DNA from: Candidatus Omnitrophota bacterium | Lineage (GTDB): Bacteria > Omnitrophota > Gorgyraeia > Gygaellales > Profunditerraquicolaceae | Reading direction: 5' to 3' | NCBI GenBank assembly: GCA_028717245.1 | Contig: JAQUOD010000002.1 | Span: 140,772 to 204,771 of the forward strand | Length of the DNA: 64,000 nt | Shown here: piece by piece, positions 21,001-60,000 of the stretch | Numbering within the stretch: the stretch's first letter is position 1 | How the letters are laid out: each line of letters starts with the position of its first letter | Notes under the pieces: model-generated | What the model was told of the DNA's origin: nothing | The model's input: the letters and a program-made list of their open reading frames with translations, nothing else | The model's database searches: none | Position numbers and translations under genes: made by a program

Positions 21001-24000
21001 TTAAAGACAGAAGTTTTATAGGCCATGGGTTAATGCGGAGTATGATAATAGACCTTAGCGCGAAATTCAGCAGTATAGATAGGCTTGTTGCCGGCCCATC
21101 CTTAAAGAAAATTATGATTATTGCTTCGGATACGCCTTATGCGCCGATTTATATCTCAAGTATTTTACAAAGTAAATTAGGTAAGGGTATTGAGGAAATA
21201 TCGCTATTGTCTGAATACCGCTACTTAGGATTAAAAGGAGAAGAGTGCCTCAGCGAATTTATTAACCAGATTAGAGCAGCAGACCTTTGGGATTTACCCC
21301 AGCAGATACAAGGTATTTATCAGGGGTTAGAGAGTAGAATACCCGCGATGTTAGCGAAAAGTAAGATTAGTTTTGTGACGCAGGCTGCTAAAGGCGAATT
21401 TGATTTTGTATTTATGCCAGCCTCGCCCGCGCCGCAAGAGTTAGAGAAGGTCAAGGCAGCCCTACGTGAAGGAGGCATATTCGCAGAAGATAGCGGGACG
21501 GATATCTGCCTATTTAAGAAAGCCAAGGGAGAGCTAGTTAACGTCTATCACATAAATGAAAAACCAGACTACAAGAATAAATTGACCCTTTGGGATTTAC
21601 GCAATACTCCTAATGCCTGGTTAGGGGCAGAGAATGTCATGGTGGATGTTGAGAATAAATGGCTTAATAAATTAAGTTTTGAATTAGAATCGGTTTTTGC
21701 TGCCGAAAGGCCTGAGAGGGCATCACATCACGGTCTGTCACATTCTTCGCGGATGTGGGAGAAAGCCAAGATTCTGATTGAGCGGCTCAGATTAAATGTG
21801 GATATTGAAGTTTTAATTGCGGCGGTATTCTTACATGATATAGCCACAGCTTATAGCGATGAGCCACAACATGGAGAAATCAGCGCGCAAAAGGCTGAGC
21901 CAATCTTAAGAAAAATCGGGTTCCCCGAGGAAAAGATACTCGCTGTCTTAGAAGCAATTAGGCTGCACGATGCTTACGAGGCAAAGAGGCAAACGCCAGA
22001 GGCTAAGATTTTATTTGATGTTGACGAAATTGATGCTTTCGGCGTAATAGGTATCTGGAGATATCTGATGATTTATTATGACCGTGGCTGGGACTTAAAC
22101 CGGATGGCCACTCATATAGTTAATAATATCCAAGTAAGATTTAATAATTTGCATTTCGCAGAATCCCGCTCTATGTGTAAAGTGGATTATGAGTATGCTT
22201 TAGGATATTTTGAAAAACTATGCGCAGAACTAAAGTCCGGCTATGATATACAAAGCCCATTCGGAGCAGTCGGTATTTATAATCTCCTTGTTCAATATAA
22301 AACCTCTTCCTTTAAAGATACGCCCGCTTTAGCAAACAAGGAGCTTTCAAGTGAATTTAATACGTTAAGCCCAGAAAAGCAAGAAGCAAATAGGGACGGT
22401 TTTACTTTCGCTGTGGAATATCTTGACAGATTTTTAAAAAATAATGCAGGATCCGTAAATGCTACAGCTTTATCTTATGCTGAAGACGGCGCGCCTAAGA
22501 AGAGATCCGAAGACCAGCGAGGCTCTTTAGCAGGTACGTCACCTAAAATTATTATTGCGATCGCACTGGCTGCGGTTGGCGCCACACTCGCCGCCGTTTT
22601 CCTGCCGGGCTACGAGAAAGAAATCGCCGTCATAGCGCCCCTGCTTATGTTGCTGGGGATAATAAAATCAAGGAATTTTATTCTCAAAGAAGATTTTCGA
22701 TCCATTAATATCGGCGCACAGATAAATTCTTCAATATCCGCGTTCATCTGGCAGCTCATTAGCAAACACCTTAAGAATATCGATGAAAAACAGGAACTTG
22801 AATTACTGGAGAAGCTGGACAGCTTCATCGACAACCTTGTGAAATTGAATATTATTATGATTGGCGGCATGGGTAGCGGAACGCACTCAGTACCAATTAA
22901 TATTCATAACATAGTTATCGTTGATATTCGCGCCTTGCAAATGGACACTTTTGGAAACTTCAGGGTAGCCCTGAGCAATGGACAGAGTGCTGAAGACCTT
23001 ACGGTCCTGCAGAAGATAATGAGAAAGCTCTTAGATATTCAGGACAAGGTCGAACTGCTTAAGTACAAATGCATGCTGGAGGCGCCTATTTTACTTACTG
23101 GCCGCGGCAGAATCGAAGAAGATATGATCGAATACGAATCTGAACAGGCAATTGCTCAACTGGTAGAATCATTTATCGATGTTGAATATCCTGTCATGCT
23201 TATCCATGAACTGAGATATCTTTATTTCCTTATCGATTCCTGGAAAGGTTCTACGAACAAGGCAAGCACCGGGAAATCTATCCTGGCTCTTTTGGCAAAA
23301 CTGGAACAGGAAATTAAGCAAAAACTGCAAACGGTGGCTAACAAAGAAAACCGGGCTTTGACAATTCAAGATCAGGATATGCCCATCGGTATGAAAAAAG
23401 ATCTTGAACAGGCGCTGGTTGAACTTTACAAACTAAAGGAATTAGCTGAAAATCTGAAGGTTGAGCAGCCTTCCACCATTGAAACCGGCATCAAAAATGA
23501 TCTTCCGAAGATCTTGATAGGTAGAATGTTCAATGTCATCAGTTCGCTGAAAGAACGTTTCCGTATTAGCCCCTATGCATCATCCAAAGAAGAAGCCGCG
23601 GGAAAAATTATTGATTACTCAAACGATAACAGGCAGGATATACTTTCAAAACTCGACGATCTGGATCGGTCAATTAATATACTGGCGAGTGCCGGGGCGG
23701 ACGATAATTTTGTTTTATCTGAACATCTGGCAGATCTCACGCGGCAATTAAGTGAAACGTTCATTACGGCAATGGCTCTGCACAACCTGGAAAAAGCTCT
23801 GAGGGCCATTGAAGGAATCTTCAGAAAGATTATTACCCTTGAAGAAAAGGCGCGGAAACTGGGAAAAGACAGGGATACAACAAGGTTTGCTCCTAATGTA
23901 GATATTATCAGCAATATCGACAACCTCCTGCCGCTAATCGATCATCCGATAGTAATGGTGGGCATCCTGGATTATTTTAACCGGTATGTTGCCTTTAACC

Positions 24001-27000
24001 TGGATTTTACTGACCGCGAGGCAAAGGCCGATAAGTTGGAGTTACTGGATGAACTCAGGAAAGCAGTTGCCGTAAAGAAGGAAGAACTGACACATTCCCA
24101 GGATCAATCGGCTGGCATCATAGAAAAGGAAGATGTATCCCAAAAGATCAATGACTTATCTGCCGCTGAAAAACTTATTGATGATCTGGAAAAGAATATA
24201 AATCATCTAAGAGATTTTTCTGACGTTCAAAATCCAATTGATGAAACAATTAAATCATTAGACCAAAGAAAATTGCTTCCACCCGCAACTAACCTGCCGA
24301 CCATGACAGGACTGATGGGCCCCTTAGCGGCAGTGACTATCATCCTGTCAATGGTATTAGCACAATACATTTTAGGTTCAGGCTTCGGTCAGGCAATCGA
24401 TAGTGTGCGGCTTGTCCAGGCAGGGATACTGCCTGATCTTTCCCGGCTTGGGCTTGCGGGCCTCTTGCTCCCGCCTCTTGTTCTTCTCGGGATGGCGATG
24501 TCAGGAAAAGAAAGTCCGGCGTCCTTTCAAGCGGGAAAGAATGAAGCACTGATAAGGATGCGAATAGGGACTCTGCGATTGCAAGATTTGAAATATATTA
24601 CTTTTGAAGATGTTGAACGAATCACCATAAAAGGTTTGCTCCTTGGGCTTCTTACTGATCAGTCGGCGGACGTCAGGGCAGCAATAGCAGAAAAACTCTG
24701 GTTTGACGGAAAGATAACCGATAATGCAATGCTTGCAAATGTTGCAATTCAGGATTTGAATAACAGAATTCAAGAAATGGGAAAAGGTTTTGAGGAGGAC
24801 AAAAATGTCCGCCTTGCGATTGTTAAAACCCTGGTTCATATGCTCCCTCAGTTTATAAGAAATCCCAAACTAAACAAAAATAAGGCATTTGTGGGCAATT
24901 GTTATGCAAGCGTAGAAAGGGAGCTGGGTGCACTTTTGAAAGAAGAAGGCCCAATAAAGAAAGGGGCTGAAATTGCCTGGGCAGAATTTGTCAATATCGA
25001 TCCGGGTGATACGCTGGAGCTTCGAGAATCAAAAGAATTTAGCTTCAGCTTCAAGGCAGGATATGGCATAGATACGGCTGATATCTGGAATATGACCGTA
25101 GGAATAACTAAAGCAGACCTGGGTGAAATTCCTTCTGATGCTATTATCATTGGTCTTGATTCAAACATGACCGATCAAACCGGATTTGCTGACAAAGCAA
25201 TAAGGATTATTGCCAGCAAATTGTTTTTCCCGAGAAAAAGTAATTTATCATTGACAAAGGATCTCATTTTCCCGACAAAAGGTTCTTTGAACCCAGGGCA
25301 TGCTTTAGCGGTACTCCTTGGATCAATGATTGATGATGCGCGATTGAATAAAGCGCCCGGATGGAAATATGCGATAAGCGTAATTACCCATTCGCCAGAG
25401 TCGAAGACTCCGAATGAAAAGGAATTCAAATTAGCAATAAATAATGCATTGTTGTTAGCTGAAACAAATAAGGCTAGCTCGGTTACAATTACGATCTTTA
25501 AGGCAATTAATGACAAGACATCAGCAAAATGGATGCTTTCTGCAATTGAAGAATTTGCAAGAGACTCTAAGCCCAGGAATTTGAAAAGAATTATCATCGC
25601 TCTAGAAGACAATCACGAACAATATATGACATTCCTGAATGAATTGCTGTCAAAGGAGAAGCCAAAATATAGGCAACAAATTCCCCTTTCTCAAAAGAAT
25701 AACCAGAAAAATAAAGCTAATGAATCCTTGTCGCAAAAACCAGCCGCAGTAGTGCCGGATGAAAGCAGGCAAACATCAGCACAACTTGCCAGGGAAAAAA
25801 TATTGTCAGGTTCTTTTAATACAGAAGATCTAAAGCAAATAACATTAAAGGATATAGACCCTAAATTACTTGATGCGTTGTTGTTTCAGCTGCGCACCAA
25901 TCCTTCTGCCCAGATTCGAATGGAAATACCATCGGCTTTATGGTCGAAAGGAGAGATTACCTCGAATCTGGAATTGACATTAAAGGTAATATGGTCCTTG
26001 TCATGGCTTTTACGTAGAGGCTCTGAAGTACAAACTGATAGCATAGTCAAGCTATCAATGGCATTTCTTCTGGGTAACATTGAAATTGCCTACCTGAGTA
26101 ACCAGCAAATCAGGGAAAACCTTGACCATGCAGCCGCTGCTGCAAATGAAGACCTTAATATTCATTTTACCACCCTTCAGAACGAATTGGACGCGCTGTC
26201 AAATGACAAAAATGAAGACGTGAAAAATGCGGCAAATTTACTGTCCGCAAACATAAAAGAAAGGCTTGTTTTATTTAATATCTTAAACAAAATACCGGTA
26301 TTTGGCCGACGGCCGCCGGCGCAAAGAGGCCAGAATGCAACAAGCGCCGGTGCCCGTGAGCCGATTATAAACTTTGCTATACCCAGCAATGTCAAAAGCA
26401 TTTTAATAGGTAATCTCGAAATTGCAATAGTTAGAGAAGACATAGGCAAAATAAAATCCGACGCCGTTATCGTTTGCTTAAACTCCGATATGAAGGCTGA
26501 TACTGGAACCGCGGAGAAAATAGTTGCAACGGTTGCTGATACGGATTATTACAACCACAACCAAAAACTGGCACATGATTTTATATTCCCCAGGAAGGAT
26601 GTCAATGTCGGATCAGCCTTTGAAATATTTCTCAGAAACATCAAAAATGAGCCAAAATGGCAGACTGCTCCCGGCTGGCAGTATGTAATAAACACCATAA
26701 CCCACCAATCAAAATACGCGGGTCCCAGCATCAATAACTTCCAGTTGGCTATCAAGAGTGCGCTGGAACTGGCTGAAAAGTACAGGCTGAGATCAGTTAC
26801 GATACCGGTTATCAAGTTGAGCAACGATGAAACATCAGCCAACTGGTTGGTTACTCCTGTTGGAAACTTTATCAGGGATAAGAAACCCAGGAATTTGGAA
26901 AAGATAACAATTGTCGTCAACAGTACCAGTCAGCAAGCGGCTTTTACTAAAGCCTTGTTGAAACTGCGAAATCTTGCGGTCGAAGAAATGGCGAGAAGCT

Positions 27001-30000
27001 TGCCAGGGCCGCAAAGAGGTGCTCGTAGCCTGTTCATCGGCTTAGCTTTTGTCGCGGGAGCGCTTCTTGATTATCTTGGGATCGGTCCGGTGCATTCGCT
27101 GCAAATCTATCGCGCCGGATTATTTACAGACCTAATTTCACTCGCGGCGCTCGTTGCCGGAATAGGGTTAATGATATATGCTATTTATGCGAAGATAGAC
27201 ATCGAGAATATAACCAGGCGCTCTTCCTCCAAATTTGGCCCACATCCTCTGCAGGAAGGCTTAAGGCCTTTATTCCAGAGGGTTGCTTGGGCAGATAAGT
27301 ATGCCCCGGCTGGTTTTAAGATTAAAGATATCTACGTCTTTAAAGTGCAAAAACACGGCATGGCCCCTACTCCGGCTATCTCATTTGGGATGGTTTTAGA
27401 GAATGGCGTAGTCTTAGAGCAGGCAGGGGTAATGGGAGGGATATCCAAAGGAAAATCCGAACCTGAAACCCACCCCAGCATTGATCAGGCAATTGAATTC
27501 TTCAATAAAAATGTCAGAAAGCATTTTATCGGGCTAAACGTCAGCCAGCCTGATGAGATCACCGATAAGATCATTGACTTAGATGAGCAATTCCGGACCC
27601 AAGCCGAAAACAAAGATAAACCCCGCTTCTCTTATATTGGCGCTGAGCTATCAGTAGGCATCTCCATGATTTGCTCAATTGCCTTTGCCGAAAGATTAGG
27701 CGTACCTTTAGAGATTATCACCAACTACCGTTATAACAAGTTCTGTTTAACTAAAGGCTATTCTAAAGAGCTTCGTCCCATGACTATCCCCGTAAACTAC
27801 TCTGTGGTCTGGGAAGGGGGTAAGCATGGCGTAGCCAGGCCATTAAAGGAGTTAGTGGAGCAGGGCATTATCAAGGATGCCTCAGAATTCCCGGATAAAA
27901 ACATAAATTTAGCCATGATCCCGCCGCAGGAAGTGCAGGTTATGGCCTTTACTCCTACCTGGCAAGAGGCAAGAGAGATCGCTATCCGGCTTACCGAGAA
28001 ATTCCAAGCCCTCTTAAAGAAAAAAGGGATTGAGATTAAGTATAAGTATGGCGCTGAATCCGGCTGCACTACTGAGCAGACCTATACCCAGGATGGCCGG
28101 CTGATTACCTTAGAGTTAATCCTGGATATCCTGGATGAGGCACGTAAGGCATTAGGGGCTGATGCCAAGTATGTCCGGTATGCCTTGGATATTGCCTCCT
28201 CTGAGATGTATATCTCCAAGATTGATAAATATTATATTGGCCCATCTTCTGCCGGCAATGAGAGCGGCTTAGTGACCAATGAAGAGTTCACCCAGTATAA
28301 ATTAAAACTCTTTAAGCGCTATCCTTTTATCTCTGTAGAGGACTGGGCTGATGAATCTAAATTAGAACACTGGCTCTCCGGCAAGGCGATTATGCCTTCC
28401 ATGATCCAGATAGGCGATGATAATGTCGTCTCCCGCGCAGACTTAATCTTAAAATTCAAAGACGTGATTAATGCCCATCTACAAAAACCCAATCAATCCG
28501 CAGAAGAATTGGCCATGATTCTGGCTGTAGCCACCAGCCATAAACTGGGTAATGTCGTGGTCTTTTCTCACCGCAGCACCCGGCCTGAACTGGAGACCTA
28601 CACCGCGCAGACAGCTATGGGTATGGGCGCTTTTGGAGGCAAATGGACTCTCTGGGGCGCTGGCCGGGGAGGCCTGATTGCCGCTACTAACCAGGCTGAT
28701 GAACTCTATAACCAAGGCCCTTACAAAAATGTAAAGCTTCCTTATCAGGGCGGGCTGGCCTTAGACCCAAATGGCCCGTATAAAGATTATGGTTGGGCTA
28801 AGAGGGTGAGAGAAGAGATTGCAGACCAAGAGTTACAGTTTAGGAACGAGCAGGGTAAGAGCAATTATCCTCTGGACTTAAGGAGAGAGGCCCCGGCCTT
28901 ATTTGAGCTGGCAAGAAGATTCCGCCTGCCTATTTACTCTAAGCTAGATGAGACAATTTACGTCTGGGATGCGGATGGTGTAGAGAGCGCCCTTCAGGCA
29001 AGATATGCCCAGGGTCAGAATGACCAGGCAATGATCTCTATTATTACTATCGGCCAAGACGGCATGCCTAAGTCAAGATTAGATAAGGGGGGGGCGGTAT
29101 TAAATATTAATTTTAGAAAAGACAGGCAGATACAATGGGTCTCCGCTATAGTTGACCCTAATTTTAATGCCTTCAAAGTTACGCCTCAGGCAAAAGATAT
29201 AAGTATCACCGGCACGGTCCAGTATGTCCCTGAGCTGGCGCAAGAGAGGGCTATTTTAGCTGATACCATAGTAGAAAATAGTTTAGCGCAAGTCTTAAGC
29301 CGGGAAGGTATTCATACCGTATATTTGTTTGATGCGGAAAAGAGCGTTTTTAGGGCTGTGGTTAAAGGCGGTAGAGAAGAACTCTTTAAAAATGAGGATA
29401 TAGAATATGCTTCCATCTCCATGCCGGTACTGATGAACCTTGAGCAGATAGGAAAATACAAGCCTGATGAATATAAGCAATTGGATAAAGATAAATATGT
29501 GGCTTGGTTTTATGGCCCGCTGCCTCAAACTGAAGAGTTAAAACAAATACAAAATAGAGACTACCGCATGTATCCGGCATTAAGCATGTTCGTTTTAGCC
29601 AGGGCAAATATAAGAAAGATTCAGACTGCCCGGCCCGGGACGCACGGTTTTACCAATTTATCCGCGCTGGATTTAATCGGCCACGTAGCCAAAGAGGACA
29701 TAAAGAAGATCACCAAACTCTTTGTAGAAAGGCCCGACGGCACATTTGAAATCAAAGAAGGAGACGGCTGGGCCTGTATAATGGAGTGCCTGAAGGTCGG
29801 CGATACCTGCGTAAAGATGATACTAGAGGCAGTAGAGCAAAAAGAAGGGGTGCTCATTCTCTACGGCGACCACGGCTCTGTAGACGATACCAGCCAGCCA
29901 GGCCATAGCTTTAATAATGTGCCGATATTTATTATTGATTTTAAGAATAAACAGGTCAAATTAGTCAGGCATAAAGGTAACCGAGAAGATACCCAGGCAG

Positions 30001-33000
30001 ACATTGCCGTAACTGTCTTGCACATTTTAGGGATAGCCAAGCCCGAGGAGATGACCGGCAAGAGCCTCCTACCGGATGATTATGTGGGCGCTAAAGAGAG
30101 GATTGTCTGGGAGGTCCTCTTAGACGGCTTTGGCCACACTGATTTTGCTGATCCAAAAAATGCCTTTGGCCCGGCAATCAAGCAGGGCATCATACCTACG
30201 ATTAAAGGATTATATGACCAAGATAACTACGCTATCCTTAAGGCCGCAGGTTGGTATGCCGGATTAAGAGGCGGCAGACAGGAAGATTTTAGGCCCGAGG
30301 AGATAAAGAACAGGGAGACGATGTTAAAAGGGGTGGCCCAGGCTGCTGAAAGTCTTAAGCTCCCCATAAAGATTATTTATTATGATTACCGTAACATCCC
30401 TGAGGCAACTAAAGCCTACGATTATCAGGCAGGTATAAAAGAGCTTCGGGAGAGCCCGTTCTTAAATGACAAAGATTTTGTCGTCAAGACGCTGGATAAT
30501 GAAGTTAATGTCCTTTGCCTTGACCCGGCGCAAATGGGCTCCACTGAATATAATACCTGGACTATAGGCGCAGGCCGCATTGTCAAGCAGTCCATTGTCG
30601 TCTTGGATGAGCAATTTATTAGCGGGGAAATCTGGGGAAATCCGGCCTTAAAAAATTATCTTGCCTTGGCTAAGAAACAAGGCTATGCCCACATGGTAGG
30701 CTTATTGCAAGAAGCCGGGGTGCATGCCTCAGCCACTCAGCTTTACTATCAAAATAAAAATTTCAAGAAAAATGGCATAGAGAGTCTTATGTTTGACTTA
30801 GGCAGTGACGGAAGAGACGAAGGGCCGAGGGATTGCCTAGGTCGCGTGCGCCAGCTTAGGGGAGCGCTTAAATATTTTGGCATAACAGATTATACAATCA
30901 ATATCCGCGGCAGAGAGATATGTTTTGACCGGGCTAAGAATTGGAAATTGACCGTAGCCTTTATTAACGAGCTTGTATTTGGCAGCCGGCTTGAAAAAAG
31001 AGCGCTGCAATCCGAGGAGCATAGAAAAGACAATCCCGGCTTTATCAAAGGCATAGCTTTATTAAATATGCTCTTAGTATTATTCGGGCTGGGGATTGTA
31101 GTTTCGTTATTGTTAGGTGTTTTTAAAAATGACATGCCTGTCCTTGCTGGATTGCCTCAGGGGTTTTTAAACTGGTTTGTACCAATGAGTGGGGTTGGTA
31201 TCAGCGCATTGATATTCTTGGTGGGGGTGTTAAGGGGTAGTCAATTCTTTGACAGCAGAACCTTAGAAAAAGTTATTCGCAAGCTCTTTGATATTGCTAT
31301 TGGGAAAACTGCGGGAGATAAAGAATATGCCGGGGGACTTTTAAAACAAATAGCAGAGAAAGTTGATAGTGATGATGTATCGCTGGGAGTGCGGCAAATA
31401 GCTGTTGGTTTGTCAACGCTGGAAGGCCTGGTTAATAATAATCCCCCGGATAATAAAAAAATAGGCTCCATTCTTAATATTGTTAATAACAGATTTACTG
31501 AAGGGGTAGAGGTCATATTAGATAACGAGAAATTATTAAAGATATTGATTCAAGCAATGAGCAGAGACAAAGAGATAAGCTATCAGATAGACTATGTATT
31601 GTCTTTTGAATTAGGCCTGGGAGAGAAGCTACGTGATAAAATCAGGCAAGCCACAACTTCTTCCGACCTCGAATTAAAGGAATGCGCCCAAAAACTGTGG
31701 GAGGAATTTGTAGAAGATACCAACAAAATCATAGATACAGATTTAAAAAGAGGCCGGAATTGGCAAGGCGCCATGGACACGTATTTGGGGACGGCTAATG
31801 ACGAAGGCTCAAAATTTTTATTAAAGAGGTTATTAGAGCCCAAAGAAGATCTTCTTGTGCAAATATACTCATATTTATGGCAGGTCAAAAGATTTAAAAT
31901 ATTTCATCAACATCTTTTGCAAGCTATGCATTCATCGGACGAAGAATTAATTAAGCTGGCTAAGAGTGTATTTGATTCTTTTAGTGAAATGATTACTAAA
32001 GATATAAGAGTAGAGGTAGAGATAGATATGAGAGATTACTACATTGATGCCATTAAGATATATCTTGATTTTCCCAATGGCCCTTCTTTAGATTATCTAA
32101 AGAAAATGTTCAACCAAAACACAACATATAAATTGGGAATACGTAATGCTATTATGAGTATATTATTGAGTAGCGAAGACGCAGATTTGCAGGCAGAAGC
32201 AAAAAAGTTATATTATGAACTTTTCCCAGAACCCGACACAAACAGCGACCACAACCTGCGCCTTGATACGCAGCGCCTGGCTGGCCGCATTTTAGAGGTT
32301 GTTCAAAAAAATAATATTTTCTTAAAGGTATATAATGAAGCCTACAAAAATAATTTAGAATATATTCAGGAACTCCATGGCAACAGGGGCCCGCCAACCA
32401 AAGTAGAGAAACGCTTTGCCCGCACTAACCCCATTGCCCGCGGCCTTACCCCCGATGGAGATATTAACTGGCTCATCTCCGCTAAATTCAGAAAGTTCTC
32501 GCCCAAAGTGCTCGCCTCCATTAAAGAACACGAATCCGGACGCACGGAACTACAAGGTTTAATCAGGCAGTATAATCAATCCCGGCAGAAAAAAATTTCT
32601 CCTATAACGAAAGCCTTTTCTAAAGTATTTAATCCGCAAAGCCTAATTATCTCATCATCCGTTATTTTTATCTTAGCTTGTTTAGGTATAATAATCGGCA
32701 AACTTAATGCTATGGGATTATTTGTTATCTCAATATTAATGGTGGGGATGGTTACGACAGCCCCCTTGATGCCTTCCCGCGATTGGATGGAATGTTCCCG
32801 GCAAATTGAAGCATGGGTAGGTATCAATACCGCTGAAACTAGAAGTTTGATTATATCCATGTTCAATGACCCTGACCGTACGGTAAGATTAGCGGCAGTT
32901 AACGCCTTTAATAAAATTAAAGACGAGCGGGCTGGCTTTGGGTTGTGTCAAATTATAAAAGACACCGATGAATATTTTCAAGTGAGGGCAGCGGCTATAT

Positions 33001-48000: not shown

Positions 48001-51000
48001 TCTGGTCGTTTATCAATGGCCATTGGCAGGCAGGTTTAACTGCTGCATTTATTCCATCTTTTATGGGCGGCCTGGGCGCATCTAACCCGCTTGAATACGC
48101 AAACAGGGTTAAAGAAAAGGCGGAAGAGCTTTTACAAAAGAAAAACGCCGCAGAATTACCTGAAATGGAAGTAAGGGCGTATGAAGAGATATTAGAATAT
48201 CTTCAGTTAGCAATCGCGGGAGATGAGTTTGTAGATGGCAGCACAACAGAAGGCTATGAAGATATTATAGAAAGTGGAAAATATGACGATAAATTGAAGG
48301 ATGAAGCAAGGCGTAATTTAAAATCAGTTTACATGGAGATGATTGAGATTTACCAAAAATTATCCCGCCTGACAGGCGAGGATTATATTGATGCAATACT
48401 CGGTTCTTATAATGAGGCAATAAGGTATAATCCCAAAGATTTGGAACTACACGCAGGATTAGCAAAATATTGCTTAAAGAATGGCCTGCTCTCCACTCTA
48501 TCCGAAGCAATAAAATACCTTTCCCAGACTATTGAGGGGCAATTGAAATTAGCCCGGGTTTATTCAGATTCAGAAATGTATGAAAGCGCAAAAAATGAAG
48601 CCTTTGGAGTTTTAAGCCGCGAGCCGGACAATACTGATGCTCTCGCTCGTTTATTATTTCTCTATAATGTCATAGGCGATATGGATAGGGACAGGGTTAT
48701 TGCTGCGGCAGAGTATATTATAGACAATGCCTCTTTGAAAAAAAAGAAAGATGTTTCTAACGCTCTATGGCGGAGTTTTAATAACGTCCAAGAAGCATTG
48801 TTAAGAAGTGAAAAACTGGAAAACATATTAAAGAAGGCAATAGCGGCTTATCCACATCTGGGTGATAGATTTGGGAGGTTCCTGGTAGTATTGGGAATGA
48901 ACACAAAAGAAGAGATTGGGCAGTTGCAAGAAACCCAACTCGGCATAAATAAAAAAATCACAGCTTATCAACAGAAAATAGCATCTCAGATTAATCTTAA
49001 GTCAACCTGGCAGGGAAGGGAAAAATTTGTAATCGGAGTTTATAGGCAGGCCTTAGCCGATGGCATCATAGGCTCTGCCGAGATTCTAATTTATTTTTTC
49101 CGCGCCTCTTATTCTATTAACTATCCCCTTTATTTTATTTTGAAGGAAATAGAACCTCGCCTTCAACAAAGGCTTAGCCTCGGCGAAGCGGAAAAAACAA
49201 AACTTTTGCGCCAGTTGATAGAAGAAGAAACAAGAAATCATCAGTCTAAATTAAGCAATGAGGAGAAGGATGAGCTATGGGCAATCTCTAGTGTAATAGG
49301 AGGGGAATTTGGTGATGCCTGGTTGGAATGGATTGAAAGAATCTTTACCATCGTTTTACCATTTTTATTTTTAGGTTTAACTATTTGGCAGATGTTTCAG
49401 GGAGGGGGGATTCCAGGCGCGCCTTTGGTTGCCTTAGGAGTTATTCCTGCTATACGGCCACTTCCTGATTTAGTAAAAAATTTACGTCAAGGCCTTAAAC
49501 CTTTACCTAACGACAGCACAGTTTATCTGCCTGAGGGGAATATTGCCAAGAAAAAAAGAGGGCATAAGATAGGGATTATAGTTGCCACAGACGGTAAGAA
49601 AAAAATTAAATGGCATGCGAAAGAGCGTAACTTGCTTTTAAGAAACGAGGCAAACAAGAAAGAGTTAATGATTACAGTCTTGCTTAAAAGCCTTAAGTTT
49701 AGGCCTATAGATACAATCTGGGTTGGCGATACAGAATATGCCTTAATTCAAGATAGGGCTGATAAGAGAAATGTTTTTATGAGAAAGATAAAGAATGAGA
49801 GTAAGGACGGCAGCTTAATTTTTGATGGGAAAGAGGCGTATCAGTTAAGAAAAGGCGCGCGGGCAAGACTAATAATTAGCCTTGAGCAATTAAAAGAGAA
49901 TCCGGATGTAAAGAAATTTTACGGTAACGAACAGCAACAAAAAAATCTCCCGGGAAAAATCACTGAGGATGAGGCGCATTTCAGGGATTATTCCGAGGAT
50001 TTGCTGGAGAAGAACCTGGAGCTTTTTGTGCTTCTTTCCAAGAGGATGATGTTAGAAGGTAAGGAGAAAGAAGAGACGGCGCAAAGAAGGGAAGAGCTCG
50101 TAGGAGAACTCTTAGATTGCGCTATTAAGTACCATATTCAGAGGTTTAAGAATGATAAAACCAAAGTCAGGGTAGCCAAAATAAATAGAATGATTTTAGA
50201 AGCAGTGCAGCTGATTAACGCGGATAATGAAGTGGCAGCCCATGCAACTTTATATGGCGCAATAAACAGGATTAATGATATTCGCATAGAGTTGCTGAAA
50301 GCGCGGCTTAAGAAGAGAAGAGGGTATGGGCCAAAATTATGGTGGGATAGCAGCGCGGTATGTATTTCTCAACAGAGGTATATCGTCCCAGAGGGCGGTA
50401 GGAGGCCTATGTTAGGAATAGCCGTAATAAAGTATAGAACGCTCTGGGAGGCAATTAGGGGGACAGTTGAACAGGTTAATTCCGAGGCAATAGAGAAACG
50501 CTGGGCCGCTAAGAGCATAGAATTGGTTTCCGCAGCGCTTAATTTGATGGAGAGAGTCAAATCAATTCAGGATGGTGTTCCTGAAATAAAATTAAGCCAG
50601 CAGGAGCGCGAGGAGATAAAAGCAAAACTTAATAGTATGCTTAGCGCAATCGGCCAAGTGCGGGTTGAGGAGAAGAGGGCCGTGAGGCTTCTAATAAAAG
50701 CGGCCCTGGAGATAATATCATTGGGAGACAGGCATAATCTGACTGCCGAAGCATTTTTAATCATAGCTAGATACTATCTGCAAGAGAGGGAGGAAGATAC
50801 CGAGGCAATGATTAAATCGCTTAAGACTGTAAGCACCGAAGGATTAAGAGGCATGGCAAGGACCAGAGACAATTATGTATTAGAGGCTAGTGGAGAAATT
50901 ATTGATTTAATAAATAAGGATAAGTTAGGGGCTGCCTGCAACGAAATTAATAAAATGATGCGGCAATACGGCCTTACCCAAGAGCCCGAATATTTAATCC

Positions 51001-54000
51001 ATAAGATACTCAATCCCGCCTTAAGGTTTCTTAACGCCAAGAAAAAAGCCGAAGCAATTTCTTTAATGGGATCCGTTAAGAAGAAAGCCAAACTTTCGGT
51101 AATCCTACAAACGATATTAGCTGAATACCGCAAGAGGTTAACCGATATTCTACTGGACAGAGAAATTTCCGCAGAGGAGAGAGATGTTTTATTAAAGGAG
51201 GTATTTTCGGCGGTTCTCGAAGATATTCGTTCTTCTGGCAAGGAGTTATCTGAAGAAGGAGTTGCTATATTATGGGCAAGGGCATATCAGGCCGTAAATA
51301 TAGCTCCTCGGGTTCCTGGCGCCAGGAATAGAACCGAGAAAGTAACTAACAAAACCTTTGAAGCTGCCCAAAGATATATCCGCCTCTTAGGGCTCCTGGG
51401 AGATGATTCTATAGAAGAAATCCTTAAGAAAGGATGGATTTATAAGCCAGAGTTTAAAAATATGAGAGTATTTTTAAAAAGAGTGCAGATACAGATAAAG
51501 GAAAGAATGAAAATAAGTCCCGAGACCGCGGCAGAGGTTAGTTTGAGAATACGCTTGATACCAGATGATTTCTTGTGTTTAGCTGAAATATTAGCCAAAG
51601 AAAAAGAACTTAAGCTTGATGTTGAGCAAATGGAGCTACTTAGGGGTTGTGTTTGGGTTGATACAAATTGTCCTTCCAAAAATACCGGCACTCATACGGG
51701 CGCAGAAAGGGCTTTTAAGTCTGACCCTAAGGAGAGTTTACCGGAATCATATTCAAGCCGTAGCACACACGCACATTTTCCGCAGGATCCTCTTGACAGC
51801 CCCTTTACTTATAGCAGAGGTGCACATTATTTTACCGGAAGTATAGTTGGCAGTGCAGGCGTTATGGTTGACTCTACTAACAACATAGGGAGTCCCCAAG
51901 GTGAATTTGATCTCGCGATAAAAAAGGCAGGCTTGTCTAAGACAGCCAAGGGTAGGTTTAAGCCTGTATTGTTTATAACGAGAAAAAGGCATAGGCTTAT
52001 CTTTTATCAGAAAGGGCAGAGGCTCCCTATCCAGGATATTATTGTTTTATTTAGAGGTTGCCGGGCTAAAGAAGGCAATAATAGGTCATTCGGCTGGAAA
52101 AATATTAAAGAGAATATTCGGGCGCGTTGGGAGAAAAAAGGAAAGGCGATATTCGGCGCTAAATTCTCAGGCAGCCAGCTCATAAATGAGCAAGAGGTCC
52201 TGGAGAAGATCGCTAAGACATTGGAAGCGGGTGAACAGATCAGGGAGAATTTCTCAGAAGAGAGGGCATGCACCCATTATATATTAAAGGACGCAGAAGA
52301 GGGGAAGTTATATGATGTTATTACCGGTACTTTAGGCGATGTGGTAAGAATTGACGAACTTCGGATTGACTACTATCCAGCGTATATTTTCTATATTCAG
52401 TCCGGTATTGGTGATTTCTGGTTAGCCAAGTATTTAATAGGTATCCTTCAAGAAGGCAAATTAAAGATTGGCCCAAAATATTATCCCCGTCCAGGTTACC
52501 AAAGAATAAGAGTTAATGACTTGGCCCGAGGCAAGGCGCTCAAAGGCGTAAAGATAGAGAGAAAAATCTTCTTTGAAAAAGCAAAGGGACTAATATACAT
52601 CATAGATGCAAAAGAAGGCGATTGTTTAGTAGTTGACGTAAAGGGGCATTACTATGCTTATTGGTACAGGATAAAAACCGGGGATTTTATAGACAGAGAC
52701 GAATATTTGGAGATAACAGAAATTGTTAATTCCGGCGCAACGCAGCGCCAAAATACCGGCACTCATTTTGGCGACGAGGAGACTTATGACCCTGATTTCA
52801 GGCCGTTTATTATTAAGGGTAAGAGGATGAATTTCGATGAAGCGCATAAGGCATTTGTTAAACAATATATACACAGCCCGGATACCTTAGTAATCAGGCT
52901 GCAAAACGGCATCTTAACGCAAATCAACCCTAACGCTCCGCCTCAGGAAATACCCGCAATAATTAGCAAACCCATTCTAAAACTAGAAAAACCCCTCGTT
53001 TCCGGTAGATTGATTCGTTTCTGTATATTTCAAGGAAAAGCCAAAGACTACATATACGGGATTAATCCCTATTCTTTATTAGATGCGCAAGGCAGGGCAG
53101 TCTACGCCGAGGCAGGAAGCGGAGGCAAAAATGAAATAGGCCAATACCACAATATCATTTCTATATACCTCAGCCGGGAACTCTTCATGATTTTATCTAC
53201 TGAAGCCATGGTGGAAAGGCTTTCTGAAGAGCTAAGACACGCCATAAAAAAGGTTGAGCAGAATAACCATACTCAGGAGAAATTTGATAATGACCCGGGG
53301 AGGCAAAAGAAATTAGACTCTATACAGTCTCGAATGAAAGGCATAGGCCCGATTTCGCCTTTCTCAAGGGAAGAATTAATCAAGAGAATGGAAATCACAC
53401 CTACAAAATCAGATAGGTTGTATGATTTGCGAAAGTATAGCACAGCCGTAGATTATTTAAGGAGAGATGAAGAGCAAATCAGAGGTTTCTTAAAAGCTAA
53501 ACATTCATTAGAACCCTGCACTTTGGCAGGGATTATTCAGGCGTTATCTTCAGATTTCGCCATCATTCAGAATGAGGCGGAATTAGAAGAGGCAATCAAG
53601 AGGCTTATTTTAAAAGGTAATCAGATAAGCTGGGTTGAAGGCAAAAGAGTAATCTGGAATGAGCCTTATGGCCAGCCTGTCAGCGCTAAAGAGAAAGCTA
53701 AGAAAAATTCAGCGGATGAAAGTACAGGAAGTGACGTAGAACCTAAAATACCAAAAAAGAGCTACGTTTTTGAAATAGGAGAGAAGGGGGCTATTACCCT
53801 ATCTTTACCTGGTGCAAGGGAAAGGGTAACTTTCTCATCCCAAGAAAGAGCCATATTAATTGCTTACGGATATACTGATGGAGAATTAATGAACGAAACC
53901 GATATTAATAACTCTAACTGGGTTAAATCCTACATAGGAAGTATTATTAGTAAAATAGAGGCGATCGCTGAGTTGAAATTCAAAGCGCCAAAAGGAGATA

Positions 54001-57000
54001 TACCAGGTGCATTAAAGGAAGCAAGGCGCCTCTATCGTGAAACAATAGAGGGCGACTTAATAAATGAAGGATATCCAGAGCCCATCGCTATTGTGGCAGC
54101 CAGGGAGAAGAGCCCGCGGGGATTAGCAGAAAGCCTGAAAAGCCAGATGCAAAGGGAGTCAACGCCTTACGGCGTGATTTTAGATAAGGCGCCTCAACAG
54201 GCAAAGGGTGCCTTGCGCGAATTTTTACTCGCGTTCTTAGAGAATAAGAATCCTGACTACATCCAATTTTTTGAAGGTTTGACAAAAACAGCCACTCCTA
54301 AAGCTATGACTGATGAGGTACGCAAAATTTATTCGACCGATTCGGAAATATTGAAAGAGTTTTTAGAAAAAGAAACCACAGGCCAATTTAGAGAATTAGT
54401 TAAAAATGTTGTTCGCCCGAATCTTCCTCAAGGGTTAATTTCATTAGTCCTGATACTCTTTCTTTCTGTAAGCCTCTTCTTTAGCGCTTGCAAGCCAGTC
54501 GGCCCACCAGCAGTTTCTAATAATCCTACCTCAACGCCTCCTGTTGTATCTACGCCCAACGAGCCGGAAATATCTTTAACTGATGCCCAGGAATGCAATA
54601 GTAAAGGTGTTGATTTGGTTGAGGCCAGAGATTATAAGAATGCAAAGAGATATTTTGAGAAGGCCATTGAACTCGACCCTAATTTTGCCGAGGCATACGC
54701 AAATATAGGAACGCTCTACGGTGAATCAACGGAATATGAGATGGCTATTGAATATCTCAATAAAGCAGTTTATCTGGATCCTAATTCAGCCGTTGCCTAC
54801 GCAAACTTGGGCAAGGCCTGGCTAAACTTAGCGAAATTTCCGGGAGATGTCAATCATGCGGTAAAATATCTTACCAGGGCCATAGAATTAGACCCTCGAT
54901 ATAAGGATGCCTATTACGATTTAGCTATTGCTTATAGGATAATAAAAGATTATGACCGGGCAGAGGGAGTTTTGCTTAAGTTAATTGAGAATAGGCCCGA
55001 TGATGCCAATGCCTACAAGAATTTGGGCGCGGTATATGTTAAGAAAGGCGATTTTCAGCGTATCGAAGTAGGCGATTTTATTCAGGCAGTAGAAGATTAT
55101 AAAAAGGCAATAGAGTATTTCCAGAAGGCAGCGGACCTCGATCCAAATTTACGGGATATTGTAGAATATAATATCAAGCAAATTAGGGAATCGATAAATT
55201 TAATGTGCCCCCAGGCGCATAATCCGATAGACTCATTACCGCTTGCCTTGATGGCGGCTGGCGTTGTTCCTCTGGGAGTAAGAGGAGGGAAAAAGAAAAG
55301 AAAAGAAAAAATCATTGGCGAGAGAGAAGAAAGATTCTTTGTTTTTCAAGGCGAACTTAGCAGATTTATCCGAATAAGCGCCGAGAAATTTAAGGCGATA
55401 ATCTTGGAATTACAGCCATATAAGCCACTGGTTGAAGAACAAAGAAAAGAAATCGGGGAATTCTTAGAAGCCTTAGGAGAAATTGGCAGTTTAAGAGAAG
55501 ATTATTTGATGGAGGAAGATTATCCTTATATCTGCGATGGTTATGCGAAGAGAATGGTAGGGATTCTAAGAAGATACGGGCTGAGTGCTGAAGAGGAAGC
55601 CCGGCAATGGCCGGAATTAAAGCCGATTATGGAAGAGTTTGTAAAGAAGTTTGGAGAAAAGATTGAAGTTTATTCTGAACACCATTTTGTCCGGTGCAGA
55701 ATTGCCGGGTACGATTTCATTCTTGATATTACTGCTGACCAGTTTGAAATAAGAGACCTGACAGGTAGATACCAGCAATTAGGCATTGTGGTTTTGCCAT
55801 CGGTCATTGCTCAGAGAAATCCTGCAAGATTCTGGATGTATAATTGCAAGTTATCTGAATCATTTGCCGAAGTTCTTGAAAAAGACAGGCCGATTATGCT
55901 TGAAGCGTTTTGTGATATCCTAAGAGTCCTTAACGAAGGGGCAAAAGCGAGGTTATCTACAATTTTGTGGCCTGCAGTTAGAGCTTCAATTAATAAATTA
56001 AATCAGAGGGAATTACCCAATGAAAAGGAAATTTTTCCGAACCAAGTTAGAGAATATCCAGGTGACCCATGGGGCATCCTGCCTAATAAAGGCTCGACAG
56101 CGGATTTCTTGAAGGATTTATGGAAATTTAGAGATATCCTGAAAGATTATCCGATAATTCCTGCTCAGCGGGGTCAAATAGAAATTGCCAATAGCGAAAC
56201 AATAATATGGAGGCGGTTGCATAAAACAAGAGGGGCTCCGCAAGGCTTGCCTTTTAGCCGCGAAACTTTAAGGCAAGAAATACTCGCCGCCCAAATATTA
56301 GGTTTTCTCGACGAAAACCATAAAATTACCCCTAAGCTCCTGAATCTCACCCATGAGCAGTTAAATGAAATCTGCAATATTCCCAAATTAACCCAGTCTC
56401 CTATTAGGGTAATCAACTTAAGGAGAAGGCCAAAAAGACTTCTGATAGAAATTGATTTCGCCATTTTTGGGTTTGGCAAGATAAATCCAAGAGTGAGGCA
56501 GTTAGCCATCCAAGTCATTGCCGCAGGAAAAGAGTTAAGCCGGATTACGGATGAGGAGGCCAGGCAGGATGTTGAGGATTTAGTTCGGCTTTATCAGGGG
56601 ATGAAAATAGATGAATTCCTGCAAAATAGTTTTGACAAATTATCTGCAGAAGAAAAATTGGCGTGGTTAAGAGCGCTTATAGAAAAGAGGAAAACAGAAA
56701 TAGAATCATTGGATTTTCGCAGGCTTGCATCTGGTGGGGTTGATTTGGCAATCTCTGCGTTATTCCGGGCCTATAGGGATAAGGAAGTGAAGGAGCCTGT
56801 AAAAGGGATGCTTAAAGATATTCTTTTTTATAAATGCAGGGGCCCGATTGAGCCAATTACTGCAAATAATGTTGCAATCTACCTTGAAGAATTATCTAAA
56901 ATGTATGAGATTTACCAGCCGTATAAAATCACGAAAGAGACGTTAAAAGGCACAGCCACAGTTTTGACGAGTTTCTTATTTTATTGGGGAGGCAATATTT

Positions 57001-60000
57001 ATGTCTTCAGCTACGAGAAGGACGGCGAGATAATGCATACTCTCATTGATTCAGGCGATAGGCAGCATAGGCCACGCATATTAAGATTATTGAGAGAAAA
57101 CGGAGTTGAGCCGGCCAATATTGAGAAGATTATTTTGACCCACCACCATTTCGACCATAGCGGTTTGGTTAATGTTCTCTGTTTGGTTTCTGGTGCGAGG
57201 GCCTTGGTTCATCCTAATTTTAAAGACATAGTTGAAGGCAGAATAGTTGATTATGAGGTTACGGCGAAAGCGGCAAGTAGGCTTAAGGTAGAATATTTGT
57301 TTTCCGCTGGCTACCAAAGAAATATAGGCGGGGTTGACTTCCCTGCTTTTAAGGCGGTTGATATCGGAGAAGGGGTAACTTTAGAGATAATCGGCCTTCC
57401 TAAAGCTGAATTGTTCCATACCCTTAACCAACTCTGCTGTATATTTACACCTAATGCCCCTTTTAAGCCCGCGGATGAGATGATTTTTTCCGGAGACCTC
57501 TGGTTGAAGGAGCCCCCGGGTATTCCAAAAAATATTTCATTTTATTCACCGCACATTTTTGAATGGATAAAAGAACTCAGGCGTGGCTTTGATTTTCGCC
57601 CGCAGGACCGAAGAGCAAAGGATGCGCTTAAGAAAGGTTTTAGCCTTATCGAAGTAAAGCCCGGCCACGGCGGACCATTTTTAGGCACTACAATAATCGG
57701 CACGCTGCTTGCCCGCCGCGACATCTTAGTAAAATTGGGTTTTGGCGAAAATGCGGATAAAGCCATATTGGATAAAGAAGATATGGTTCTCAAGATAAAG
57801 GAATTAAAAGAAAAGGCCTACCAGGGTTTTATTAAAGAATTAAAATTCTGGCAGAGGCCTCTTATAGAAACAGGATGGTCCGGTTATAGCGTTGAGGAGA
57901 TATCCGGCTTTTTACTGCGGGTATACCAGGAGCAAAGCGGCGGGGGAGAATTAGTCGGAGAAGACAGAAAGGAAAGGAGAATTGACCTTAAGGATAAATT
58001 ATGGAGATTAAAAAGCGATGAGCAGCAGCTAGTAGAGTTACGCCAAATAGCCGAATCCTCATTAGCAAAAATTGAGGGGCTATTAACGCCGCGCAAACCT
58101 GATTTTAAATCCGATGAGGTTGCAGAAGATTGTAATCCCTTTAATTCGCTGGGTGGTAGAGCACATACACACCATCCGGAAAATAGTTTGTTTCCTGACC
58201 CAGTTGGCTTTGACCGCTGGGGTAATCCTTCGCTGCGCTATCGGGATGGAGCAAGAAAAAGAGGGCCAAGGCAGGATGATATGGAGCCATGTCTTGAAGT
58301 AACAATTAGAATTGACGAGGAATTTCGAAAGAAGGCGCAGGAGATCCTTGGCGAGGGTTATAAGAGAAGGGCTAAGCAACCGCTTAACCTTAACCCCCCT
58401 GAATTAGAGATGCTCAGATTTATTATCGATGGCGACAAGGCCAAAACCAAAGAAATCCAGTCTAAATCAGATAGTTCTCTTTCAAGATACCTGAAAGGCA
58501 TATTGGAAGATTTGAGAACAAATAACCGTATCCACGCAGTAATATTAGGTATAGCTTTAGGCGCAACCGGAGCCGAGGAAATCAAGTTTTTCATTAAAAA
58601 AGAGCCTCAGCGGGAATTGACTAAGCATGAGCAAGAGATACTGATACTGATTGCCAGAGGATACAGCAGGAAAATGATAGCCGCTAAATTAGGTATCCGC
58701 CAGCATAGAGTTAAAATAGAAATTAGAAAAATATGCGATGATTTTGGTATTTATATTAAAGCAGACAGCTCTGCGTCGCAAATGCAAGCAGTATTAATTG
58801 CGCTCTGGAAGGGACTGTTTAAAGATAAGGATTTAATTAAAGAGATAGGCTCAGAAGAAAAACCGGAGCAGCCATCGGTGAATGAGCCGCAGTTGGAAGA
58901 GGAATTTAAAAGAAAAATCTCGCCTGAATTAGCCGAATCACTTTACGCACTGACAGGCAGGGGAAACAATATCTGGGAGGGCGCAATAAACAAATTGACG
59001 CACGGACAAGTTGTTCAATTAAACAAGATACTCAGTTCACCCGGCCTGGTTGATCCTTTATTAATTCATCTTTATTTAGTCAGCTATTTTAAAAGAAATC
59101 GCAATACTAACGATCAGGGCTTGGCATTAATATTATTGGAATATCTCGTTGATAATTTTAATAACGAAGAGGAATTATTAGGACAGGCCGGAGTAAATAA
59201 GGAATATTTCCAGCAACTAAAGAAGCTATCCCGGTTTGAGCAATGGTCAAGAATGATATGCGGCAGCGGTAAAAAGCGTTATAGCCTTGATGAAATCGCC
59301 ACCAGAAGCGGGGTGGATAAAGATTTTATTGAAGCCAATAAAGATATTATTCAAAGGCATATCTTATGGATGCAGAAGCTTGACTGGGTAGCTGCATGCA
59401 GAGAAAGGATCCAAGACGATGGTAAAGCCAAGGGATGGACTAAAGAGCAGCTGCGTCAAAAACTAGGGGTTCCTTATGATAGGGTTATAGGGTTGGCATG
59501 GACAGGGGGGATATGGGCCGTTAATGTGCGCAAGGCCGCTGACATATTTGAACGAGAAGCAGCTTTCTTTATGTACGGTGGCGCAGAAAATAACCTGCTG
59601 GAAAGGTTGCCCTTTAACAGGCGGATCGAGTTCTTTAGGTATAAGGAAGGCTGGAGCCAGGAAGAGCTCGCATCGCAATGCCGGGTTGCCACTATGGAAG
59701 TAAAGCGCTGGGAGAATGGCGTATTCATCCCTGCGCCTGAAATGATGTTGCGCTTAGCCGAGATATTCAACGTAGAAGTAAGCGAGCTTATGTATGGTTT
59801 AAAACATGCCGAAGCGCTGAAAGGATTACCTTTCTGCAAACAGATTGAATTGTTAAGGTATGAAAAGGGATGGACCCAGAAGGAGTTAGCGTTAAAGTGC
59901 GCAGTTGGCACTACGACCGTAAGATATTGGGAATATGGAATGAGTTCCCCTAATCTTCAGTACAGGCAAAGGTTAGTGAATATTTTAGGGGAAGAAATCA

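Follow-up and report, generated by a model that had tools for sequence, protein, structure and literature searches.

A stretch of 64,000 nucleotides (nt) from a Candidatus Omnitrophota bacterium (assembly GCA_028717245.1, contig JAQUOD010000002.1, positions 140,772 to 204,771 of the forward strand; hereafter the window) is spanned by a single open reading frame (ORF) in which a preliminary description had noticed an HD domain, two tandem macro-like modules, a metallo-beta-lactamase (MBL) fold, and a Nudix-like domain. The question raised by this locus is whether these folds work together as a repertoire of nucleotide and ADP-ribose hydrolases, or whether each is an independent part of a much larger protein. 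The second answer is favored here. The window is probably an internal piece of a membrane-anchored, multi-enzyme giant gene of the Archaeovorin or ‘multi-enzyme metabolic cluster’ kind, composed of independent modules with no shared signalling pathway.

Frame +3 (nt 3–63998) contains zero stop codons across 21,332 codons, against 656–1973 in the other five frames, and remains open at both ends of the window, so the gene is longer than 64 kb. No second ORF of >200 amino acids (aa) was found in the window. Pfam and NCBIfam scans, run over the ORF tiled in 1000-aa pieces, recovered ~30 protein families, all in this one frame, of which the HD, MBL, Nudix-like, and macro-like modules are four. The remainder include a glycogen branching enzyme (GlgB), ribulose-phosphate 3-epimerase, TPR blocks, split parts of PPDK/PEP-synthase, a long HEAT array, an archaemetzincin, enolase, iPGM, GNAT, CheR-type and other S-adenosylmethionine (SAM) methyltransferases, HAD, and helix-turn-helix domains of the LuxR, XRE, and sigma-70 r4 types. 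The four modules in question lie at ~2.2 kb (Nudix-like), 21.7 kb (HD), 25–27 kb (macro pair), and 57 kb (MBL), spaced 3–30 kb apart, with unrelated enzymes and transmembrane-like helices in between. The ORF and the modules are as follows.

3–63998, + strand: single uninterrupted ORF of 21,332 codons; all Pfam and NCBIfam matches fall in this frame
2151–2612, + strand: Nudix/IDI-YfcD-like module with a degenerate Nudix box (sub-threshold Pfam, NCBIfam, BLASTP; 3' end estimated)
21687–22073, + strand: HD phosphohydrolase module, YedJ/YpgQ type (Pfam, NCBIfam, PDB alignments)
24567–25079, + strand: helical (possibly HEAT-like) N-terminal half of duplicated unit 1 (self-BLASTP; sub-threshold Pfam HEAT, 20.2 bits)
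25080–25640, + strand: macro-like copy 1 with degenerate ligand loops (BLASTP to copy 2, NCBIfam, hhalign)
25809–26389, + strand: helical N-terminal half of duplicated unit 2 (self-BLASTP; sub-threshold Pfam RPN1_RPN2_N, 19.7 bits)
26390–26940, + strand: macro-like copy 2 with degenerate ligand loops (sub-threshold Pfam, NCBIfam, AlphaFold2 [AF2]/Foldseek)
56919–58088, + strand: MBL-fold hydrolase with a conserved C-terminal helical subdomain (Pfam, homologue alignment, AF2/Foldseek)

This composition closely resembles that of giant proteins already reported. Glycosyl transferases, methyltransferases, peptidases, and NUDIX domains are a constant feature of the Archaeovorins, in which HEAT_2, TPR, PPDK_N, and HAD_2 are among the most frequent families, transmembrane helices are numerous, and domains are highly divergent (West-Roberts et al. 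2023, 10.1101/2023.11.21.568195). A 2026 preprint described a ‘multi-enzyme metabolic cluster’ class with methyltransferase, GNAT, HAD, HD-domain, and NUDIX modules on a HEAT scaffold, in which repeats persist at the protein level while the nucleotide repeats have dissolved (10.64898/2026.06.07.730766). The window shares with the Omnitrophota giants one ORF of tens of thousands of codons, beyond the 10,000-aa mark for such proteins, transmembrane-like helices, HEAT/TPR scaffolds, PPDK_N, glycogen and glycolysis enzymes, methyltransferases, GNAT, HAD, HD, NUDIX, and a peptidase, as well as divergent domains and old repeats that are visible in the protein but dissolved in the DNA. Unlike in the published giants, no GT5/GT1 or radical SAM domain was seen in these 64 kb. 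The texts of the two giant-protein preprints make no mention of macro or MBL modules, and their supplements contain no tables by Pfam family that cover macro, MBL, or HD.

A crude Kyte-Doolittle scan identified ~20–28 transmembrane-like hydrophobic segments in the ORF, often as close pairs between module blocks. Those nearest to the HD and macro-like modules are listed below.

22548–22604, + strand: transmembrane-like helix after the HD block (Kyte-Doolittle, crude prediction)
24303–24503, + strand: two transmembrane-like helices directly upstream of duplicated unit 1 (Kyte-Doolittle)
27132–27197, + strand: transmembrane-like helix that directly follows duplicated unit 2; another hydrophobic stretch lies just before the helix (Kyte-Doolittle)

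Over the ORF as a whole, transmembrane-like regions include aa 2560–2670, 7516–7555, 8091–8168, 9010–9065, 10350–10410, 10875–10925, 12078–12158, and 14089–14197, among others. If these helices were truly paired as hairpins, all modules would be on one side of the membrane; whether a cluster contains an odd or an even number of helices varies with the threshold, and therefore no membrane topology is claimed.

The HD domain, previously placed at 21690–22100, was confirmed by a Pfam match above cut-off (PF01966, 41.5 bits, cut-off 22, E=1.9e-10; profile positions 2–115 of 116) covering aa 7245–7345 (nt 21735–22037), with all of the metal ligands in place. The best NCBIfam match was PRK10119, a YedJ-type phosphohydrolase (E=1e-16), at 61 bits and thus under the equivalog cut-off of 286; by this measure the module is a related domain and not a PRK10119 orthologue. 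Its best solved relatives are YedJ (PDB 3gw7, E=9e-11) and YpgQ (PDB 5dqv, E=2.9e-4), and the complete H...HD...H...D ligand set is present in the segments SHHGLSH, FLHD, RLHD, and FDVDEIDA, aligned with the 3gw7 motifs. YpgQ acts on (d)NTPs as a Mn-dependent pyrophosphohydrolase and relies on exactly this set of H/HD/H/D ligands (PMC8177086). The module therefore has in common with YedJ and YpgQ the full HD domain, the H...HD...D ligands, and the extra histidine; it differs from them in being internal to a giant protein and in a score far under the equivalog cut-off. The HD module is probably active, and would act as a metal-dependent phosphohydrolase of (d)NTPs or nucleotides.

The MBL fold was confirmed as well. 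Pfam PF00753 (Lactamase_B) scored 48.4 bits against a cut-off of 22.7, with the match limited to the first half of the profile, and the HxHxDH motif, reported as intact, is found as THHHFDH at nt 57141–57158. The ligands D19016, H19047, H19049, D19051, H19052, H19139, D19165, and H19222 are all present, in columns that are invariant in an alignment of 18 sequences comprising the module and its stand-alone relatives. The AF2 model (pLDDT 77) matched MBL structures in Foldseek with a probability of 1.0 and a TM-score of ~0.5 per target; its neighbors were B3 metallo-beta-lactamases, the MBL domain of flavodiiron proteins, and PqsE, and not nucleotide phosphodiesterases. A homologue search returned 33 proteins, 32 of them of ~400–435 aa, with 38–55% BLASTP identity over 95–100% of the query; those with names are called MBL fold metallo-hydrolases and come from Thermodesulfobacteriota, Dehalococcoidia, and Chloroflexota. 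The module is collinear over ~390 aa with this stand-alone family of ~420 aa (40–58% identity in the 18-sequence alignment), including a C-terminal helical subdomain with an EQxGG...DRxxRR signature. The span given earlier (57030–57710) was thus correct in its location and too short at its end, as the module reaches ~58088 with the C-terminal subdomain. Like members of the stand-alone family (e.g., P0023, P0028, and P0030), it has the whole ~390-aa module, the C-terminal subdomain, and the His/Asp ligands; unlike them, it lies in frame inside a giant ORF and shows deletions in two loops, along with one insertion of 7 residues. The loop changes are common to its closest relative, P0014 (55% BLASTP identity, 58% in the alignment). 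The MBL module is probably active as well, and would be a dinuclear-metal hydrolase from a family of unknown substrate.

P0014 is encoded on a 1442-bp contig (L004, JGI 3300046703) with its stop codon ~300 bp before the contig end; it could come from a stand-alone gene or form the C-terminus of a related giant. Around five stand-alone MBL homologues no conserved gene partner was found; SIR2, AMP-binding, NUDIX, and HD genes each occurred once. The SIR2-family gene is directly upstream, on the same strand, of one homologue (L001 5204–7281, Dehalococcoidia-type, JGI 3300002052), which is followed by GH4 and GH1 genes, an arrangement that is not kept in the four other contexts.

The Nudix-like domain near 2.2 kb proved to be homologous to a true Nudix domain, but its Nudix box is degenerate. 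The Pfam NUDIX (PF00293) score of 16.5 bits is under the cut-off of 21.1, and the NCBIfam matches were IDI (E=1.8e-5) and YfcD (E=8.6e-5). A single relative was found in the databases: P0047, a true NUDIX protein (Pfam NUDIX, 105.7 bits), which aligned at 37% identity over 103 aa (E=4e-15). With reference to the Nudix box GX5EX7REUXEEXGU, P0047 reads RELEEELGI and the window EEIKGELVI (REUxEE to EEIKGE), such that the arginine is replaced by glutamate, one glutamate of the EE pair by glycine, and the final glycine by valine. The module resembles IDI type 1 and YfcD in its N-terminal WHR..H....N..GE.LL..R...K....G..D.S.AGH pattern, and departs from them in the broken Nudix box and the score under the Pfam threshold. 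It is probably catalytically impaired or repurposed.

The macro-like pair required several lines of evidence. Of the Pfam searches proposed for the HD, MBL, and macro-like segments, those with HD and Lactamase_B exceeded their thresholds, while Pfam Macro (PF01661) gave a sub-threshold score for copy 2 (17.3–18.5 bits, cut-off 22) and no match for copy 1. NCBIfam models of ADP-ribose-binding proteins matched copy 2 with E=5e-8 (NF001668) and copy 1 with E=9.5e-4. A word-seeded search of 5.8 billion clusters with copy 2 found no match at E<=1e-3. A HMMER profile built from the two window copies, searched exhaustively against 1.84 billion representative proteins, found 11 matches at E<=1e-3. Seven of these are long bacterial multidomain proteins in which the aligned region is Pfam Macro; among their annotations are a macro domain-containing protein from Candidatus Omnitrophota (MCX5678841.1, an example of the AGWKYVISAIIH-motif subfamily) and an O-acetyl-ADP-ribose deacetylase. 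The other four have repeated macro-like regions, and the sole source-named one is PARP15-like (eukaryotic). All eight bacterial segments placed in the family alignment match Pfam Macro (best E=2.6e-12), and hhalign joined the window-only profile to these eight with 99.6% probability (E=8e-24, 176 columns). The AF2 model of copy 2 (pLDDT 80, pTM 0.80) retrieved a Foldseek PDB top 50 of essentially all macro domains or macro-derived scaffolds, led by macroH2A1.1, the macro domains of PARP14, PARP9, and PARP15, and Af1521 (E ~1e-11, TM-score ~0.7). Searched against PDB sequences, the window-only profile placed the PARP14 macro domain first with a value that is non-significant alone (E=0.15), and a pattern search of genome contigs with the macro alignment matched 572 patterns, of which 0 were confirmed. 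By profile alignment of both copies and structure prediction of copy 2, the segments are macro-fold homologues; the fold suggested for them at the outset was recovered, and not an unrelated one.

The two copies are 36% identical over 198 aa (BLASTP E=4e-42) and both carry APGW[KQ]Y.I..ITH and SVTI, which upholds the internal duplication that had been proposed from the shared PGW[KQ]Y.I..ITH and SVTI motifs. The duplication extends beyond the macro-like modules to which it had been confined: the helical half preceding each copy is repeated as well, for a unit of ~380 aa (aa 8189–8540 vs 8603–8978; nt 24567–25622 vs 25809–26936) with 30% identity. For the helical half of unit 1, PP2A-A was a non-significant PDB match. 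There is no third macro-like copy anywhere in the ORF. Between the units, identity is 31% at third codon positions, which is taken to be at or near saturation, and 51–60% at positions 1 and 2; a BLASTN comparison shows next to nothing. The duplication is therefore old, with both copies conserved.

The residues by which macro domains hold ADP-ribose have largely been lost from both copies. In MacroD-type domains, loop 1 (beta3-alpha1) is a Gly-rich, catalytic loop that holds the distal ribose, and loop 2 (beta6-alpha4, S-x-G-[VI]-[YF]-G) is P-loop-like and binds the diphosphate (PMC5413906). In the family alignment, and likewise in the hhalign and PDB alignments, the ligand-contact blocks differ from those of relatives. 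GDIT is replaced by EDIG or ADLG in the window copies, with the Asp kept, and the Asn of the GDIT/N block is kept in copy 2 only. The Gly-rich loop GxGVTGAI is replaced by DTGTAEKI or QTGFADKA, in which one Gly is kept, and S-I-x-F-P-A-x-G-T-G-x-L-G by SVTIPVIKL----S or SVTITIFKA----I, a 4-residue deletion that removes both glycines. The model of copy 2 is confident across the shortened loop (pLDDT 85–92). From the loss of GDIT, the Gly-rich loop, and the diphosphate loop, we infer that neither copy has canonical ADP-ribose binding or hydrolysis. The pair resembles the AGWKYVISAIIH-motif bacterial macro subfamily in the order of secondary structure, the GW.Y.I..I.H and FP motifs, and the adenine-side Asp, and resembles macroH2A, PARP14, and Af1521 in fold; it is unlike known macro domains in the degenerate loops, the sub-threshold Pfam scores, the helical N-terminal fusion, and the tandem duplication.

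The active sites appear intact in the HD, MBL, and GlgB modules; the macro-like and Nudix-like modules and the split enolase and iPGM have been remodelled. In the proposed construction, the HD, MBL, Nudix-like, and macro-like modules would each descend from an ordinary stand-alone protein family and would have been strung in frame with ~25 other families, with hydrophobic helices between the blocks. The macro-like modules would serve as structural or differently liganded parts joined to helical repeats. Two of the modules, MBL and GlgB, have the appearance of complete genes taken up in frame: the MBL is collinear over its full length with a stand-alone family, and GlgB scores above its equivalog cut-off.

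The alternative from which the question arose is a working toolkit on one tethered protein, in which the macro domains would read or remove ADP-ribose, the Nudix and HD domains would degrade nucleotide signals, and the MBL would be a phosphodiesterase. This is decidedly unlikely. In its favor, the HD module belongs with the nucleotide pyrophosphohydrolases of the YedJ/YpgQ type; the macro copies are genuine macro-domain homologues, and the annotation of their nearest relatives is ADP-ribose binding or deacetylase; a Nudix homologue is present in the ORF; and stand-alone MBL homologues lie beside SIR2 in one case and near a NUDIX or HD gene in others. The generic hydrolase superfamilies HD, Nudix, MBL, and HAD are all very large, and their co-occurrence in a 30-family mosaic is therefore expected. 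The components themselves do not fit the role: the diphosphate loop is deleted and the GDIT and Gly-rich loop are lost in both macro copies, the Nudix box is degenerate, the nearest folds of the MBL module are B3 lactamases, flavodiiron proteins, and PqsE, and the neighbors of its homologues are not conserved. The modules are also 3–30 kb apart, separated by unrelated enzymes and transmembrane-like helices. No ADP-ribosyltransferase, PARP, SIR2, TIR, cyclase, or cyclic-nucleotide sensor was found by the Pfam and NCBIfam tiling of the 21,332 aa. PADLOC defence models had no match in four of the five segments, and only marginal ones, at ~14 bits, in the MBL (PDC-M48B, E=0.0026; LmuA, E=0.0042). 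With the macro and Nudix motifs lost and no writer found in the 21,332 aa, the large repertoire of ADP-ribose and nucleotide hydrolases that had been ascribed to this protein is not supported, and the four modules would seem to have no nucleotide or ADP-ribose signalling pathway in common.

Loss of motifs could also signify decay: the macro-like and Nudix-like modules, perhaps along with some others, would then have no function and be carried along in an ORF that stays open on other grounds. Sub-threshold scores against curated models and the generally high divergence of published giant-protein domains fit this idea, but it is quite unlikely given that the macro copies remain 36% identical with long shared motifs and 51–60% identity at positions 1 and 2 while synonymous sites appear saturated, a pattern that points to purifying selection; AF2 is confident over the remodelled loop, and the HD and MBL modules retain every ligand. 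Macro domains are also known in the nsP3 of RNA viruses; a viral polyprotein was rejected on account of the bacterial LuxR, sigma-70 r4, and XRE helix-turn-helix domains and the central-metabolism enzymes in the ORF. That the 64-kb frame is an assembly chimera or not a real gene is scarcely credible. In its favor, no identical or near-identical sequence was found in the collections searched, which included exact 40-mer scans of GTDB genomes and JGI metagenomes, but zero stops in 21,332 codons and ~30 families in the same frame exclude chance or joined contigs, and such genes are documented in complete long-read genomes (10.64898/2026.06.07.730766).

Some observations weigh against the reading of the window as part of a multi-enzyme giant gene without a shared signalling pathway. 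The SIR2 gene beside one MBL homologue hints weakly at a role connected with NAD. The macro copies keep the adenine-contacting Asp and one loop-1 Gly, and may bind a non-canonical nucleotide ligand. The AF2 input alignment held true macro domains, and the model of copy 2 therefore leans to the macro fold. SecA_DEAD, reported for full-length giants, was not found in the window; the ORF runs past both ends, and this result therefore does not decide the matter.

Several other features of the ORF were recorded, among them two enzyme modules near its start and upstream of the HD module.

87–1964, + strand: full-length GlgB, glycogen branching enzyme (NCBIfam 936 bits, equivalog cut-off 741; profile positions 5–618 of 619)
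20106–20531, + strand: archaemetzincin, Peptidase_M54 (Pfam 78.9 bits; NCBIfam archmetzin E=1.8e-28)

GlgB is well conserved, whereas most other modules score far under their cut-offs, and the archaemetzincin lies ~1.2 kb upstream of the HD module. The glycolysis modules at ~27950–31030 (+ strand) look fragmentary or permuted, with a partial enolase (profile positions 170–383 of 425) and iPGM pieces that are out of order (profile positions 215–349, then the Metalloenzyme C-terminus, then positions 41–233). Arrays of DNA-binding-type helix-turn-helix domains occur at ~42600–43680, 58617–58733, 59643–59996, and 62901–63065 (+ strand), comprising at least six LuxR/GerE-type and two XRE/HTH_3-type domains, in a protein rich in transmembrane-like helices. 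Two regions, ~5400–8100 (~0.9 kaa) and ~45900–54300 (~2.8 kaa; both + strand), are without a Pfam match at E<=0.01 or an NCBIfam match at E<=1e-4. Distant paralogous pairs (aa 1816–1968 vs 18445–18599 and aa 19642–19793 vs 20801–20949) have 27–30% identity and are up to 50 kb apart, and the HEAT array contains a register-shifted self-match (aa 5657–5997 vs 5757–6198) with 48% identity.

The domain families are known, and earlier work has described giants with HD, NUDIX, HAD, and methyltransferase modules; the modules alone add little new biology, and the giant ORF is more remarkable than its hydrolase modules, though its type has already been reported. The window does urge caution in assigning function from fold labels, as two of the four ‘hydrolases’ are without their defining ligand-binding motifs. 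Some novelty attaches only to the tandem pseudo-macro unit, which is conserved and belongs to a divergent and very rare macro subfamily. The search of 1.84 billion representative proteins detected 11 relatives, and the unit's degenerate form is a candidate for a ligand other than ADP-ribose. It is conceivable, if unlikely, that the tandem helical-plus-macro units represent an undescribed ‘pseudo-macro’ class, in which the canonical loops are lost and both old copies are under selection for another ligand or partner, within genes that grow by in-frame capture. If so, the pseudo-macro modules would bind a different ligand or a partner protein on a membrane-tethered giant scaffold. The stand-alone MBL family found collinear inside the giant ORF with its active-site residues intact bears on how such genes are built: were the same proposal true, giant genes would capture stand-alone genes in frame, as with MBL and GlgB, and remodel some of them into non-catalytic parts.

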